NCBI GenBank assembly: GCA_037442825.1
Contig: JBBIPN010000002.1
Coordinates: 1-61,988, forward strand
Origin: Sulfurihydrogenibium sp.
GTDB lineage: Bacteria > Aquificota > Aquificia > Aquificales > Hydrogenothermaceae
Direction of reading: 5' to 3'
Length of the DNA stretch: 61,988 nt
The number at the start of each line of letters is the position of its first letter. The stretch's first letter is position 1. This document shows positions 1 through 5,275 of the stretch, piece by piece. The position numbers and the translations under genes are program-made. The notes under the pieces were generated by a model. The model did not search any database and was not told where the DNA came from. It saw only the letters and a list, made by a program, of their open reading frames with translations.

Positions 1-150
1 CATATGCAATAAAACATCTTCTTCAGATGGATCTTTAAAAGTATTTAATATTACTTCTTTATTAAATATATCTTTTATTTTTTGAGAGAAAATTTCCCAT
101 TTTTTTATGCCTTTCCCTGTATCATGAAAGCAAATCGCTAAGCTTATCAT
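1..150 (-). CDS. 5' part of an unidentified protein (runs off window edge)
   Basis: Hand translation from ATG at 150 gives MISLAICFHDTGKGIKKWEIFSQKIKDIFNKEVILNTFKDPSEEDVLLHM..., open to the edge; GAGG SD at 166-163; divergent from the che operon. Confidence 0.65.
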   Translation of the reverse strand, partial: MISLAICFHDTGKGIKKWEIFSQKIKDIFNKEVILNTFKDPSEEDVLLHM

Positions 151-248
151 AAGGAAAATCTACCTCAAAATTTTTTATTTTTTTTATTTTTATTATATAA
201 TAAAAACAATAATAGATAATCTATTAAAAAATCAAGGAGGTTGATACA

Positions 249-464
249 ATTAAAAAAATTGCAAAACAAAGTAATCTACTTGCATTAAATGCTGCTATTG
301 AAGCTGCAAGAGTTGGCGAAATAGGGAAAGGATTTTCAGTTGTAGCAAGTGAATTTAGAAAACTTGCAGATGATACAAACAAAATAGCTACAGATATAGC
401 TATACAAATTTCCCATTTGGAGGAGAAGATAAAAGAGTATGAAAAGAAATGTAAGGAGGGTTAA
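249..464 (+). CDS. Minimal chemoreceptor signalling-tip protein (~71 aa), probable ATT start; alternatively an MCP remnant
   Basis: Not in ORF track. Frame 228-464 encodes [40 protein letters not shown], the canonical MCP hairpin tip; AAGGAGG at 234-240 is followed after an 8-nt spacer by in-frame ATT at 249; in-frame TAA at 225-227 rules out a longer ORF. Confidence 0.7.
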
Positions 465-467
465 ACG

Positions 468-1409
468 ATGGAGTATGGGCTTCCAGAGACGCTAAAGACA
501 GGACAAAATGAACTTGAGATAATAGATTTTAGAATATTTGAAAAAAAAGATGATGGTAGTATATACCAGTGGATACTTGGTGTTAACGTTGCAAAAGTTA
601 GAGAAGTACTGAGAATGCCTAACCTAACAAAAGTTCCAAATATGCCAAAAGAAATAGAAGGATTAGCTGAGATAAGGGGAGAGCTTATTCCAGTAGTAAG
701 TATCGCTAAATGGATTGGTATCCCAGAACCAGAAGAGTTTAAAAAATACTTACTTTTTATGGAATTTTTAAGGGAAAAAGTAGGAATTATTATCCACGGT
801 GCTAAAAGAATAAGGAGAATAAGATGGTCTGACATAAAAAAAGCACCAGATGTACTAAATACTAAACTAAATGGTAGAATAACAGGTGTAGTAGATACAG
901 AAGAAGGGCTTCTTTTAATTCTTGATTTTGAAGGTATTCTAAATGATATGAACTTATTACAGGTATTTAGAACTTCCGAAGAAGAGACATTTACAGCCAA
1001 AAGAAAACTAAAAATCTTAGTGGCCGAAGATTCTGCAGTAGCAAGAAAGATTATTAAAGATATATTAGAAAATGCTGGACATGAAGTTATAATAACAGAA
1101 AGTGGGAAACAAGCTTGGGAAAAATTAAATCAGCTATTTGATAAAGCAAAATCTGAAGGCAAAAATATAAAAGACTATATCGATTTAGTATTGACAGATA
1201 TAGAAATGCCAGAGATGGACGGTTTAACATTAACAAACTTAATAAAACATACACCAGGATTTTTAAACCTTCCTGTTATAATAAACACAACATTATCTGA
1301 TGATGCAAATAAACAAAAAGCTTTATTAGTAGGATCAGATGATTATTTAGTAAAATTTGATTCTACACACTTACTAGAACTGGTAGATAAACACGGAGGT
1401 AAACAATGA
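468..1409 (+). CDS. cheV: Chemotaxis protein CheV (CheW + receiver domain)
   Basis: N-terminal CheW domain (GVNVAKVREV, RGELIPVV) plus receiver domain (AEDS, LTDIEMPEMDG); AAGGAGG SD. Confidence 0.95.
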   Translation: MEYGLPETLKTGQNELEIIDFRIFEKKDDGSIYQWILGVNVAKVREVLRMPNLTKVPNMPKEIEGLAEIRGELIPVVSIAKWIGIPEPEEFKKYLLFMEFLREKVGIIIHGAKRIRRIRWSDIKKAPDVLNTKLNGRITGVVDTEEGLLLILDFEGILNDMNLLQVFRTSEEETFTAKRKLKILVAEDSAVARKIIKDILENAGHEVIITESGKQAWEKLNQLFDKAKSEGKNIKDYIDLVLTDIEMPEMDGLTLTNLIKHTPGFLNLPVIINTTLSDDANKQKALLVGSDDYLVKFDSTHLLELVDKHGGKQ

Positions 1410-3340
1410 TACCTGATGAATTAAAGGAGATTTTTGAAGAATTTGTCTTAGAAGCAAAAGAACATCTTGAAAACCTTGAAAATAAACTTCTTGAAATAGA
1501 GAAAGATTCAGATAATCCAGAACTTCTAAATGCTGCCTTTAGAAGTATGCATACAATAAAAGGAGGTGCTGGTTTTTTAGGTTTAACAGCAATAGTAGAA
1601 ACTGCCCACAAAGCTGAAGATATACTTGGAAAGTTAAAAGAAGGGAAACTGAAATTTTCACCAGAAACTGGAGATATACTTTTAAAAGCCGTAGACTTTA
1701 TAAAAGAGGCTATAAGATTTTATGAAGATGGCGAAACGGTAGAAACAGATCCATACCTTATAAAAGAGCTAACATATATACTGAGAGAAAAAAAGCAAAA
1801 CGTAGAAGAAAAATCTGAAACTAATATTGATAGTTTACTGAAAAAGTATGGATTAGAATATCTTATTGGAAAACCTATAGAAGAAATTTTAGAAGAACTT
1901 GTATTACTACCACCAAGTAAAAGACCACAAGAAATAGTAGATTATATAGATAGTTTATTATCTGAAAGTGAAGAAGAAATATCAGATAATACTTTAATAA
2001 AAGTAGTAGAAGAAGAAGCCGCACAAAAAATGCTTCAAATGGTAGAAGAAGAGATTATAAGAGAAGATCTAAAAGAAGATAAAAATAATAATCAAGAAAT
2101 TAAACCTAAAGAAATTACAAAGCAAGAAACAAAACCAAAGACTCCATCTAAAAAGGAAGATGAAGAGAGAGTTTTAAGAATAGATGTTCAAAAGATAGAA
2201 GATTTAATGAACCTTGTTGGGGAACTTGTTTTAGATAGAAACAGGCTTATAAGAACTGTTCAAGAGATAGTTCAAAATACAACTTCAAATAAATATATAG
2301 AAGAGTTGGAAGCTGTAGCATCTTCTATTGATAAAATTGTAGGAGATCTACAACTTGCAGTAATGAAAACGAGAATGCAACCTGTAAAAAGACTATTTCA
2401 AAAGTTTACAAGGGTAGTAAGAGATTTATCTAAAATAGTAGGCAAAGAAGTTGAACTTGTTATTATTGGTGAAGATACAGAAATGGATAAATCTATTCTT
2501 GAAAAATTAGAAGAACCCCTTGTTCATATAATTAGAAATGCTTTAGATCACGGGATAGAAACACCAGAAGAAAGAAGGATACTCGGTAAAAATCCAGTAG
2601 GTAAAATTATATTAAAAGCATACTATCAAGGAGATAGAGTTTATATTGAAATTGAAGATGATGGAAAAGGTATAGATCCCCAAAAAGTTGCTCAAAAAGC
2701 ATTAGAAAAAGGATTAATAACGAAAGAACAACTAGAAAAATTAACGGAGAAAGAAATTTTACAACTTGTATTCATACCTGGATTTTCTACAAAAGATCAA
2801 GTTTCTGAAATATCAGGACGTGGTGTAGGTATGGATGCTGTTATGAATACTGTCCTTAATTTTAGAGGAACGATAGATATATGGAGTGAAAAAGGAAAAG
2901 GAACAAAAATCAGTATGGCATTCCCTCTAACAGTTGGAATTATTAGGTCATTACTTGTAAGTGTAAGTGGTAGAAGATTTGCAATACCAATTTTCTTAGT
3001 TACAGAGATACTTTCTGTTGAAAACGTTGAAATAAAACATCTTTCAGGTAAAGATGTGTTAATACTTAGAGAAAAAGCTTTACCTTTGATTAATCTATAT
3101 GAAATGTTAAAAATACCACCATCAAAAACTGGATATGTTATTGTATGTTTAATAGGAAACCAAAGGGTAGCATTTACTATTGAAGACCTCTATGGTGATG
3201 AAGAGATTGTAGTTAAACCTCTTGGAAAAATATTTGGAAATTTAAATGGTATTTCAGGAGCTACGATTACTGGAGATGGAAAGATTGTTTTAATATTAGA
3301 TATTGTTGAACTTTTAAAAAATAAAAATTTACGAATATAA
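1406..3340 (+). CDS. cheA: Chemotaxis histidine kinase CheA
   Basis: HPt FRSMHTIKGGAGFLG, dimerisation LMNLVGELV, HATPase HIIRNALDHGIE / GFST / SGRGVGMD, C-terminal CheW-like domain. Confidence 0.97.
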   Translation: MIPDELKEIFEEFVLEAKEHLENLENKLLEIEKDSDNPELLNAAFRSMHTIKGGAGFLGLTAIVETAHKAEDILGKLKEGKLKFSPETGDILLKAVDFIKEAIRFYEDGETVETDPYLIKELTYILREKKQNVEEKSETNIDSLLKKYGLEYLIGKPIEEILEELVLLPPSKRPQEIVDYIDSLLSESEEEISDNTLIKVVEEEAAQKMLQMVEEEIIREDLKEDKNNNQEIKPKEITKQETKPKTPSKKEDEERVLRIDVQKIEDLMNLVGELVLDRNRLIRTVQEIVQNTTSNKYIEELEAVASSIDKIVGDLQLAVMKTRMQPVKRLFQKFTRVVRDLSKIVGKEVELVIIGEDTEMDKSILEKLEEPLVHIIRNALDHGIETPEERRILGKNPVGKIILKAYYQGDRVYIEIEDDGKGIDPQKVAQKALEKGLITKEQLEKLTEKEILQLVFIPGFSTKDQVSEISGRGVGMDAVMNTVLNFRGTIDIWSEKGKGTKISMAFPLTVGIIRSLLVSVSGRRFAIPIFLVTEILSVENVEIKHLSGKDVLILREKALPLINLYEMLKIPPSKTGYVIVCLIGNQRVAFTIEDLYGDEEIVVKPLGKIFGNLNGISGATITGDGKIVLILDIVELLKNKNLRI

Positions 3341-3352
3341 GAGGTGAGGAAT

Positions 3353-3823
3353 ATGGAAATAGTAAAAGCTCCTAAATCTGCAGCTGCTTTATATGGACAG
3401 CAAGAAATCAAAGTATTAGAGTTTTTAGGTGTAAAAATAGAAGATGAGTTTATAGGAATATCATTAAAAAATGTTTTAGAAATTTCTAAAATATTAGAAA
3501 TATTCCCTGTACCATTATCCCCATCTTATATAAAAGGTGTTATAAACCTTAGAGGTGAGATTTTACCAGTAATATCAATAAAGGAAATGATAAATATAAA
3601 TGAATCAAAACAATCAACAAGACTTATAATAATCGAAACAAATTTAGGTAAGTTGGCTATCATGGTAGATGAAGTTTACGGCGTTATTAGAATAAGTGAA
3701 GATCAGTTAGAACCAAATCCTATGACAAGTATATACAGTGATTATATCTCAAATGTAGCACAGATAAAACATGGATTTATTAGTATAATAGATTTAGATA
3801 AATTATTTCCAAGTAGGGGATAA
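3353..3823 (+). CDS. cheW: Chemotaxis scaffold CheW
   Basis: GVINLRGEILPVI motif; ATG 3353 preferred over GTG 3344 on SD spacing. Confidence 0.92.
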   Translation: MEIVKAPKSAAALYGQQEIKVLEFLGVKIEDEFIGISLKNVLEISKILEIFPVPLSPSYIKGVINLRGEILPVISIKEMININESKQSTRLIIIETNLGKLAIMVDEVYGVIRISEDQLEPNPMTSIYSDYISNVAQIKHGFISIIDLDKLFPSRG

Positions 3824-4305
3824 TGGCAAAAAGTTTATTTTTGCTAAAAACTATAGAATTTATAAACAATAAAAGGATGGAGCTGTTTCAAAGTATGTTT
3901 TATAACCTTTATGAAAAGTATAATGGAAACCCAGATATGTTTGTAGAAGATTGGTTTGAAAAGTATGTATACTATACGTTAAGAAAATATCTTAAAGACG
4001 ATTTTTTTAAAGAAGATTTTGAAGAATTTTATTCAAAGCAGAAAAAAATTTTAAAATCATATATAAAAGCTTATTGGGCTTTTTGTAATAATCCAGATGC
4101 AAAACCTTATTATGTAAAAGAATCTATGAACTTTTTTAATATAGAAAAGTTAAACGTTCAAGAGCTAAAAAAAGCCTACAGAGAGATGGTAAAAAAGTAT
4201 CATCCAGATGTATACCCAGATAAAAAAGAAGGAACATTGAAAATGATAGAAATAAATCATCATTACCAAATACTAAAAGCATATATAGAAAATATGGGAG
4301 GATAA
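3823..4305 (+). CDS. J-domain (DnaJ-like) protein with C-terminal J domain
   Basis: ELKKAYREMVKKYHPD...MIEINHHYQILK is a J domain with intact HPD; TAATG coupling to cheW. Confidence 0.85.
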   Translation: MAKSLFLLKTIEFINNKRMELFQSMFYNLYEKYNGNPDMFVEDWFEKYVYYTLRKYLKDDFFKEDFEEFYSKQKKILKSYIKAYWAFCNNPDAKPYYVKESMNFFNIEKLNVQELKKAYREMVKKYHPDVYPDKKEGTLKMIEINHHYQILKAYIENMGG

Positions 4306-4308
4306 ATT

Positions 4309-4869
4309 ATGGAAGATTTAAAATCTGTTATAAAATCAATATTAGAAGAAGTTAAAACATTAGAACAAAAAATTGATGAAACCACAAAAAAAGCAGTAGA
4401 AATAGGTAATATAGTTACACCTTCTACCACAGAAAGTTTAAGAGAAGTAATAAAGTTTACAGAAGAAAATTCGAATAAGATTATATCAGAAATAGATAAA
4501 GTAGAAGAAAACTGCAAAATAATAGATAAAGAAGTTCATATACTTTTACAGTTAAATCCTTTAGATAGTATTAAAACAAAATTAGAGACAATTAGAGATA
4601 AAAATACTGAAAATATGAAAATTCTTTTAAAGGTATACGAACTTTTTTCATTTCAAGATTTATCTGCTCAGCAGATAAAAGAAGTTATAAATATACTTGA
4701 GGAAACAAAAAAACATCTTTTAAATTTAGCTGTGGCTTCAATAGAGGTATCCCAAGATTTAACAGAAGAAGAAAAAAAAGTTGTATCAGGAAAGGTACAT
4801 GAACTTTTAACAGGTGAAAGAATTTTTCAAGAAGATGTAGACAAACTATTAGAAGAATTAGGATTATAA
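4309..4869 (+). CDS. cheZ: CheZ-family CheY-P phosphatase (divergent)
   Basis: SFQDLSAQQI (DxxxQ catalytic motif) and C-terminal QEDVDKLLEELGL CheY-binding peptide; directly upstream of cheY. Confidence 0.8.
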   Translation: MEDLKSVIKSILEEVKTLEQKIDETTKKAVEIGNIVTPSTTESLREVIKFTEENSNKIISEIDKVEENCKIIDKEVHILLQLNPLDSIKTKLETIRDKNTENMKILLKVYELFSFQDLSAQQIKEVINILEETKKHLLNLAVASIEVSQDLTEEEKKVVSGKVHELLTGERIFQEDVDKLLEELGL

Positions 4870-4879
4870 GGAGGAAGAA

Positions 4880-5275
4880 ATGAGCTTTCCAGTTACTTCA
4901 AGAATGTTAACAGTAGATGATATGGCTACAATGAGAAAGATAATTAAAAGTTTACTAAATCAGCTTGGATATACAAACATAGACGAAGCTGAAAATGGAA
5001 AAGAAGCACTCGCAAAATTAAAACAAAATAGATATGAATTAGTTTTACTTGATTGGAATATGCCAGAAATGGATGGTATTACTTTACTTAAAGAAATAAG
5101 AAAAGATCCACAGCTAAAAGATATCCCGGTAATCATGGTAACTGCAGAAGCAAAAAAAGAAAACGTACTGCTTGCTATACAAACAGGAGCAAATAACTAT
5201 ATAGTAAAACCATTTACAGCAGAAACATTAAAAGAAAAACTTGAAAAAGTATGGGCACAGATTAGTGATAAATAG
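4880..5275 (+). CDS. cheY: Chemotaxis response regulator CheY
   Basis: VDD, LDWNMPEMDG, VTAEA, YIVKPF. Confidence 0.96.
   Translation: MSFPVTSRMLTVDDMATMRKIIKSLLNQLGYTNIDEAENGKEALAKLKQNRYELVLLDWNMPEMDGITLLKEIRKDPQLKDIPVIMVTAEAKKENVLLAIQTGANNYIVKPFTAETLKEKLEKVWAQISDK

Follow-up and report, generated by a model that had tools for sequence, protein, structure and literature searches.

A conserved tip-only chemoreceptor gene before cheV in the Aquificales and its probable deletion remnant in a Sulfurihydrogenibium genome

A gene encoding the hairpin tip of a methyl-accepting chemotaxis protein (MCP), with neither sensor nor methylation helices, is present in 53 of 178 Aquificota genomes and is maintained by selection (dN/dS about 0.08). 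An earlier note, made from a single Sulfurihydrogenibium sequence, had proposed just such a gene before cheV, and in this it was right. The copy in that sequence is very probably a remnant left by a deletion. The ATT that the note took for a rare start codon is not an evolved start: it is a conserved isoleucine codon (Ile17), placed behind a foreign Shine-Dalgarno (SD) sequence by the deletion.

Results

The tip frame at the 5′ end of the window

The window is the whole stretch of DNA that was analysed, the first 61,988 nucleotides of contig JBBIPN010000002.1 of Sulfurihydrogenibium sp. Near its 5′ end a 78-codon frame, open from stop to stop, occupies positions 228-464 of the + strand; counted from the ATT at 249-251 it has 71 codons. 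Direct reading bears out the earlier description of the frame, its SD, the 8-nt spacing to ATT, the in-frame TAA at 225-227, the lack of any in-frame ATG, GTG or TTG upstream of the tip, and the cheV SD inside the frame. The frame stops at 462-464, and the cheV ATG follows 3 nt later, at 468. The match to PF00015 (MCPsignal) scores 82.9 bits against a cut-off of 34.6, so the presence of a tip in the window is not due to chance; it is the sole MCPsignal match in the whole assembly (1.35 Mb, 99% complete, 137 contigs). The pairing of SD and ATT, on the other hand, is within chance: in this genome of 29% GC an ATT lies 5-10 nt 3′ of 68 of the 433 AGGAGG sites, in any frame. A promoter scan of window 100-480 found none, and the RNA fold across the SD of the tip gene is unremarkable (z -0.72). 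The features of the region are as follows.

151..242, + strand: left arm of the probable deletion, the intergenic leader of a lost PAS-only gene, first gene of a receptor cluster (alignment to the closest relative, G007, and a contig from X2)
234..240, + strand: AAGGAGG Shine-Dalgarno, 8-nt spacer to ATT; in relatives it serves the ATG of the PAS gene, likewise with an 8-nt spacer (read directly; G007 alignment)
239..242, + strand: GGTT overlap, the probable deletion junction (contigs; G007 alignment)
240..464, + strand: probable remnant (codons 14-87) of the tip-only MCP gene (protein equals residues 14-87 of the intact 87-aa protein P0066)
249..251, + strand: ATT, Ile17 of the intact protein (alignment to intact copies)
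453..459, + strand: cheV Shine-Dalgarno AAGGAGG, within the last codons of the tip-only gene (read directly)
468..1409, + strand: cheV (CheW plus receiver), the invariant downstream neighbour, intact (domains; G007 comparison)
1406..3340, + strand: cheA, intact (domains; G007 comparison)
3344..3823, + strand: cheW, intact (domains; G007 comparison)
4309-4869, + strand: cheZ, intact (domains; G007 comparison)
4880-5275, + strand: cheY, intact (domains; G007 comparison)

Flagellar genes come after the che genes. A gene for a 160-aa DnaJ-domain protein sits within the che operon, between cheW and cheZ (3823-4305), as it does in several relatives. On the - strand, window 1-150 holds the start of a gene whose counterpart in G007 encodes 937 aa (phosphonate-binding, GAF, PAS, GGDEF and EAL domains); the remainder of this gene was not found in the assembly.

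A family of tip-only genes under purifying selection

In order to define the distribution of the gene, a profile of 10 copies was run on 178 Aquificota genomes. This returned 52 matches of at least 111 bits, one per genome, in frames of 78-137 aa with one exception of 203; below them is a gap to matches of at most 102 bits, which lie in long-frame receptors. With a broken copy in G002 added, the gene is found in 53 genomes belonging to 10 genera and 2 families, many of them from bacteria of hot springs and vents. An ATG behind an SD begins 50 of the 53 copies, which encode 77-121 aa (median 91). The three exceptions are the window, a copy with neighbours that are frameshifted too (G022), and the G002 copy, which is frameshifted and at a contig end. 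The gene is followed directly by cheV in 52 of the 53 loci (48 by motif, 4 by BLAST context; the G002 copy ends its contig), and in 47 of the 48 motif-found cases the cheV start is -32 to +53 nt away. What precedes the gene is variable: the order is cheZ-cheY-mini-cheV in G083 and cheW-mini-cheV in G074, where "mini" denotes the tip-only gene, a name that we also use for its product. In L109 (G033) the frame upstream of the mini, a cytoplasmic receptor, is 186 aa long, compared to about 300 in relatives.

Rates of substitution were estimated by the Nei-Gojobori method for within-genus pairs with dS of 0.1-1.5. The median dN/dS over 60 such pairs is 0.085 (0.014-0.248), far below 1, which indicates that the gene is under strong purifying selection. 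We rejected the possibility that the mini is a decayed full-length MCP on the basis of its conserved ATG, length and dN/dS, and regard it as almost certain that these genes form a real, functional family. At the locus in relatives there is neither a full MCP nor an empty space. The suggestion of a low-copy product does not hold given the ATG behind an SD in nearly all copies, nor does the suggestion that gene callers would miss the gene, since databases annotate copies as MCPs.

Of the 120 best matches in a large collection of proteins, 111 have lengths of 77-131 aa and show the five-residue signature. Intact members include WP_121012011.1 and WP_012674750.1. Those with names are generic MCPs or chemotaxis proteins from Hydrogenivirga, Sulfurihydrogenibium, Thermocrinis, Hydrogenobacter/Pampinifervens and Aquificaceae bins; one comes from a bin labelled Thermodesulfobacterium. 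A collection of species genomes was searched for the F403 motif with an exact DNA pattern, which requires Ser397 and so misses the half of the family with Ala397; this gave 15 loci, 14 from Aquificales and one, a 416-aa frame, from a Spirochaetes bin. The ESM Atlas holds only generic short MCPsignal clusters. We found no description of a tip-only family in the literature, where an earlier mention in papers or supplements on chemosensory classes or cytoplasmic receptors is possible; the accessible part of a survey of CheW-like domains (10.1101/2022.05.07.491037) makes no mention of Aquificae. The tip-only protein is therefore a conserved and apparently undescribed variant of the chemoreceptor family, which databases label generically as MCP.

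A probable deletion junction in the window

The closest relative of the window, G007, shares 87% DNA identity across most of its length. The G007 tip gene encodes 87 aa and starts at an ATG with an SD of its own; upstream of it are a PAS-only gene, a HAMP-MCP-CZB receptor and a PAS-MCP-CZB receptor. (The PAS gene in G007 is partly duplicated, along with its leader.) The PAS-gene leader, G007:C1:5088-5342, is matched at 68% by window 4-258, as far as AAGGAGGTT. From ATGGTT onward the G007 tip gene is matched by window 226-480, and the two alignments meet at GGTT, 239-242. Positions 1-242 thus derive from a lost PAS gene, whose leader and SD now run through GGTT into codon 14 of the next-but-two gene. 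Measured on G007 from the second PAS leader, some 3.55 kb has been lost, including two full receptors. The missing stretch is absent from every other contig of the assembly.

Near-identical strains provide a second line of evidence. Contigs from each of the four runs examined, which come from one study, match the window from 239 on, and upstream of that point carry intact coding sequence. One such contig, from X1, has the intact form and shows 0 nt differences from the window over 239-1304. A contig from X2 has window 1-242 with one difference and one gap, followed by other sequence, and one of the contigs ties 1-242 to the PAS gene. The joined form of the junction is in none of the contigs from these four runs. 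The intact conspecific protein P0066 (87 aa, ATG start) is identical to the window frame from Val14 onward, and the ATT is the codon for its Ile17. The deletion happened to leave this codon 8 nt from the orphaned SD, the same distance as that from the SD to the ATG of the PAS gene. Taken together, these data leave little doubt that the tip frame of the window is a remnant of this kind. The alternative of a decayed MCP, offered in the earlier note, was correct to the extent that the copy is damaged; what was damaged is a mini gene and not a full-length receptor.

The deletion itself is probably real and not an artefact of assembly. We base this judgement on an overlap too short for a mis-join, on the intactness of the rest of the cluster and on two congeneric genomes that have no match to MCP or cheV. 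If the junction were an assembly error, the source organism would possess an intact cluster and an ordinary ATG-started mini, a situation compatible with the family described above, in which only the account of the window's genome would differ. Such an error is favoured by the fragmentation of the assembly (137 contigs), by the finding of the intact form alone in the four runs, in one case letter-identical downstream, and by the divergent neighbour gene, which is likewise mostly unassembled. We nevertheless consider it unlikely. A k-mer assembler should not make a false join on so short an overlap, 4 nt (7/9 if imperfect matches are allowed); no other contig carries any of the 3.5 kb; the third receptor of G007 is also missing from the window's genome, with rearranged flanks; and the two congeneric genomes, which are 89% and 99% complete, indicate that loss of chemotaxis recurs in the genus. 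General decay of the che and flagellar cluster was rejected, as 76 window ORFs match G007 ORFs of similar length.

The ATT codon as a chance start at most

According to the earlier note, the 71-codon frame could be a low-copy mini-receptor with an evolved start at AUU that is subject to IF3. The perfect SD, the 8-nt spacer and the intact frame are all as that reading would have them. In addition, infC of the same genome (L132:1474-1490, G000:C51) seems, by homology, to start at ATT, 8 nt behind AGGAGG and with no in-frame ATG, so that AUU starts are probably readable in this genome and leaky translation of the mini is possible. Set against this, the same arrangement occurs in none of the 52 other copies, and the SD belongs to the PAS gene. 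The identity of the retained part to a contig from X1 over 239-1304 means that the window copy has had no time to adapt. A product begun at the ATT would be lopsided, with 23 residues on the N-terminal side of the turn and 47 on the C-terminal side, compared to medians of 45 and 44 in the family, and the assembly retains no full receptor. Nor does the gene resemble infC, where a non-AUG start is kept among orthologues: orthologues of the mini start with ATG, and the two exceptions besides the window are frameshifted. An evolved AUU start is accordingly very improbable. In the window's genome the ATT is a leaky chance start at most, and any product would be a low-level, lopsided fragment of 71 aa with no receptor to work with. 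The dN/dS between the window and G007 (0.051), which is near that of cheV (0.060), reflects history before the deletion.

Anatomy and fixed residues of the tip

Residues are numbered according to Escherichia coli Tsr, with positions 8-74 of the mini profile matching Tsr 357-423. The mini spans approximately Tsr 346-435 and is symmetric about the hairpin turn; its ends fall at Tsr-equivalent positions 316-354 and 429-441, and the methylation helices are absent. It ends at about what we take to be the glycine hinge of Tsr, beyond which lie the methylation helices, with methyl sites presumably near 297-311 and 493. P0066 matches PF00015 with 89.6 bits, and MCPsignal is the only domain in its 87 aa: there is no ligand-binding, PAS, HAMP or membrane domain. 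The protein is predicted to form a helical hairpin (pLDDT 94.7), which superposes on the Tsr tip (6S1K and 1QU7) with TM 0.81 and an rmsd of 0.9 A for 74 residues. A straight, "unzipped" helix, as the DSSP string of the model would have it, was rejected because the fold search gives a hairpin.

A comparison of 38 distinct mini tips with 49 full-length tips from the same loci revealed both strict conservation and a set of fixed differences. Position 370 is K or R in all 38 minis and mostly D, E or S in full-length tips; position 373 is K in 38/38 and E or D in 48 of the 49; position 389 is V in 38/38, compared to A in 46 full-length tips; 394 is K in 38/38, compared to R in 44; and 403 is F in 38/38, compared to V or I in 48. 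At position 409 K and R are never among the four commonest residues of minis, yet they occupy it in 47/49 full-length tips, while position 413 is mostly L or I in minis and S or A in full-length tips. Minis never have an acidic residue at 401. From Tsr 368 to 414 their net charge is +3 to +5, compared to -3 to +1 for the 49 full-length tips, and side-chain volume in the core is larger in minis at 389, 403 and 413. Residues 373 and 409 are presumably trimer contacts in Tsr; the change to K373 and the loss of a basic residue at 409 alter these contacts, and the mini might not enter trimers at all. F373 and CheA E533 are both in the interface list of 8C5V, which leaves contact between the two unstated, and the glutamate is kept in the window's CheA.

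Of the residues listed for docking of CheW and CheA-P5 in Table 1 of PMC13098124, Q374, 377, L378, L380, N381, 384, E385, A387, R388 and R404 are invariant in all 38 mini tips; the exceptions are 373 (Lys) and 383 (Ala in 31, Val in 7). Residues E385, R388, N381, L380 and F396, to which a passage in PMC6681711 assigns the trimer contacts and the tip switch, are likewise invariant across the 38.

A single origin, together with CheV

Quick trees were built for the tips and for CheV. With three long-branch or frameshifted rows left out, 37 minis group together in one clade, apart from 47 full-length tips (SH-aLRT 100); with all 87 rows included, the mini clade is unresolved from one long-branch full-length row (support 6). 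The CheV tree falls into two clades on one branch with support of 100: 45 distinct sequences with an upstream mini, and 13 without, with 2 more cut by contig ends. The mini-less systems examined have the order cheA-cheW-(MCP)-cheV-cheY. The link between mini and CheV is thus a single origin, that is, shared history and not independent co-occurrence, and the existence in the same phylum of a second CheV clade that works without a mini shows that the mini is not a universal need.

Of note is the position of some g11 genomes (family f2), which group in the CheV tree with family f1 (L001, L002, L010, L057 and others) and have in common with them a cluster of PAS and HAMP-MCP genes; transfer of the che operon between families is a possible explanation of this grouping.

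Neither cheR nor cheB was found in the window's genome, and cheR was not found in 8/8 other genomes of the genus. A connection between the mini and absent methylation was rejected, because many carriers do have cheR (18 of 19 in g17), with none found in g1, g7, g10 and g14.

Comparison with known receptors

Like E. coli Tsr (1QU7, 6S1K, 8C5V) and Thermotoga maritima TM1143 (2CH7), the mini belongs to PF00015 and shares the predicted hairpin (rmsd 0.9-1.2 A), the docking residues and E385/R388/F396. It differs from both in having no sensor, membrane span, HAMP domain or methylation helices, and in its fixed K373, V389, K394 and F403, its non-basic 409 and its L/I413. With MCPs as a class it thus shares the signalling domain, the predicted fold and the docking residues, and lacks sensory input and methylation helices.

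T. maritima Tm14 pairs with the di-iron sensor ODP. Tm14 (TM0014; 3G67/3G6B) is closer to the mini, as it too has no ligand-binding domain, basic residues at 370/373, K394 and a non-basic 409. Tm14s, an engineered fragment of 85-90 aa and thus of the size of the mini, crystallises with CheW and CheA-P5 (3UR1, 4JPB). The solved Tm14 constructs are nevertheless 213 aa long; the mini is less than half that length, is tied to cheV and is unlinked to ODP. Genes of the ODP family (PF19583) are present in 126/148 genomes of the order, including genera without cheV, and in complete genomes they are far from the mini; none was found in four mini-bearing genomes that are 83-98% complete (G075, G096, G100, G104). 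What the mini has in common with Tm14 is thus a tip without a sensor, basic at 370/373 and not at 409; the neighbouring genes differ. All four g22 genomes have a gene of the ODP family and cheR some 1.2 kb apart (G117:C18, G118:C146, G119:C39, G120:C10).

Bacillus subtilis YfmS has an N-terminal domain. A short soluble receptor of 286 aa, with an integrative model in complex with CheW (9A72), it is a fold match to the mini at three times the length. Campylobacter CetA and CetB form a two-part energy-taxis receptor. The likeness to this pair, a HAMP signalling protein beside a PAS-only gene, is found in the deleted neighbours and not in the mini, which has neither HAMP domain nor membrane anchor and persists where the PAS-only and HAMP-MCP genes are missing. 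Such a CetA/CetB-like pair, with a C-terminal zinc-binding domain, is present at L031:5333-7680 (a PAS-only gene and a HAMP-MCP-CZB receptor). We also observed sensor-less proteins with two tandem MCP tips (P0001-P0003, P0009, P0020, P0054 and P0114, 180-206 aa; P0092, 189 aa), one of them from a Rhodospirillaceae bin; in those of 206 aa the first tip has K373, K394 and a non-basic 409, as in the mini.

Discussion

On the strength of its docking residues and predicted fold, the mini may well be part of the structure of the chemosensory array, as a subunit blind to signals that docks on CheV, CheW and CheA, and we place about even weight on this possibility. Two minis would dimerise into a short four-helix bundle, stiffened by the larger core residues at 389, 403 and 413. 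The stop of the mini abuts the start of cheV, which suggests that the protein would be made at about the level of CheV and CheA. It could then join the few true receptors of these cells (two or three full-length receptors in each complete genome of the genus) in mixed arrays, where its more basic docking face would give it a preference for acidic partner tips and for grooves of the CheW type. Without sensing anything itself, it would occupy lattice sites in such arrays, seed their assembly or set the baseline of the kinase. Three points weigh against a place in the array: the mini might fail to enter trimers given the altered 373 and 409, the second CheV clade does without the mini, and the data on its presence amount to one evolutionary origin.

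The main rival explanation has the mini binding the adaptor groove outside the array and not within trimers; it would serve CheV (or CheA-P5) as a free decoy or chaperone and buffer the supply of CheV to real receptors. Its position immediately ahead of cheV, kept even at loci with no receptor gene upstream (G083, G074), its basic face and the changed 373/409 pair are all consistent with such a function. Passages in the literature add that receptor selectivity of CheV is known (PMC4742279), that CheV of Pseudomonas aeruginosa binds receptors selectively and in a phosphorylation-dependent manner (PMC12691637), and that competitive titration by receptors has been proposed, as a proposal only (PMC4692393). 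We think a decoy rather unlikely, given that the trimer and tip-switch residues E385, R388, N381, L380 and F396 are invariant, although the docking and trimer surfaces overlap and this invariance does not cleanly separate a decoy from an array subunit.

Less probable still is a two-part receptor to which the mini contributes the signalling half while a partner senses in trans, be it a PAS-only protein, as in CetA/CetB, or ODP, as in Tm14. A PAS-only gene does head the cluster in several relatives, and the basic 370/373, Lys394 and absence of a basic 409 in Tm14, like residues 373, 394 and 409 in the first tips of the 206-aa tandem-tip proteins, recall the mini. The PAS gene, however, adjoins the HAMP-bearing MCP and not the mini, and is missing from many mini loci; ODP is unlinked to the mini and not co-distributed with it; and hardly any of the mini's surface lies outside the tip.

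Returning to the array, we tentatively propose a more specific function: the mini may be a dedicated, sensor-free "filler" receptor of some 90 residues, belonging to one Aquificales chemosensory class and made with CheV, CheA and CheW. Its task would be to build or prime the lattice of the kinase and to determine how active that lattice is at rest. If this is true, the filler receptor would be a natural minimal array scaffold, in which the structural job of a receptor is split from the sensory job.

To our knowledge, chemoreceptor tips are held near-invariant and are always tied to a long, signal-carrying coiled coil. Here is a thermostable protein that consists of the tip alone, is strongly selected across ten genera and has a fixed set of changes in charge and core. 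It offers a tool for asking what CheV binds and why, how the contacts of the tip divide between trimer formation and control of the kinase, and how arrays are made from two or three receptors. The copy in the window, for its part, is of less consequence: it probably bears witness to the recent loss of every receptor, and serves as a warning that a perfect SD followed by a rare start can be the scar of a deletion.
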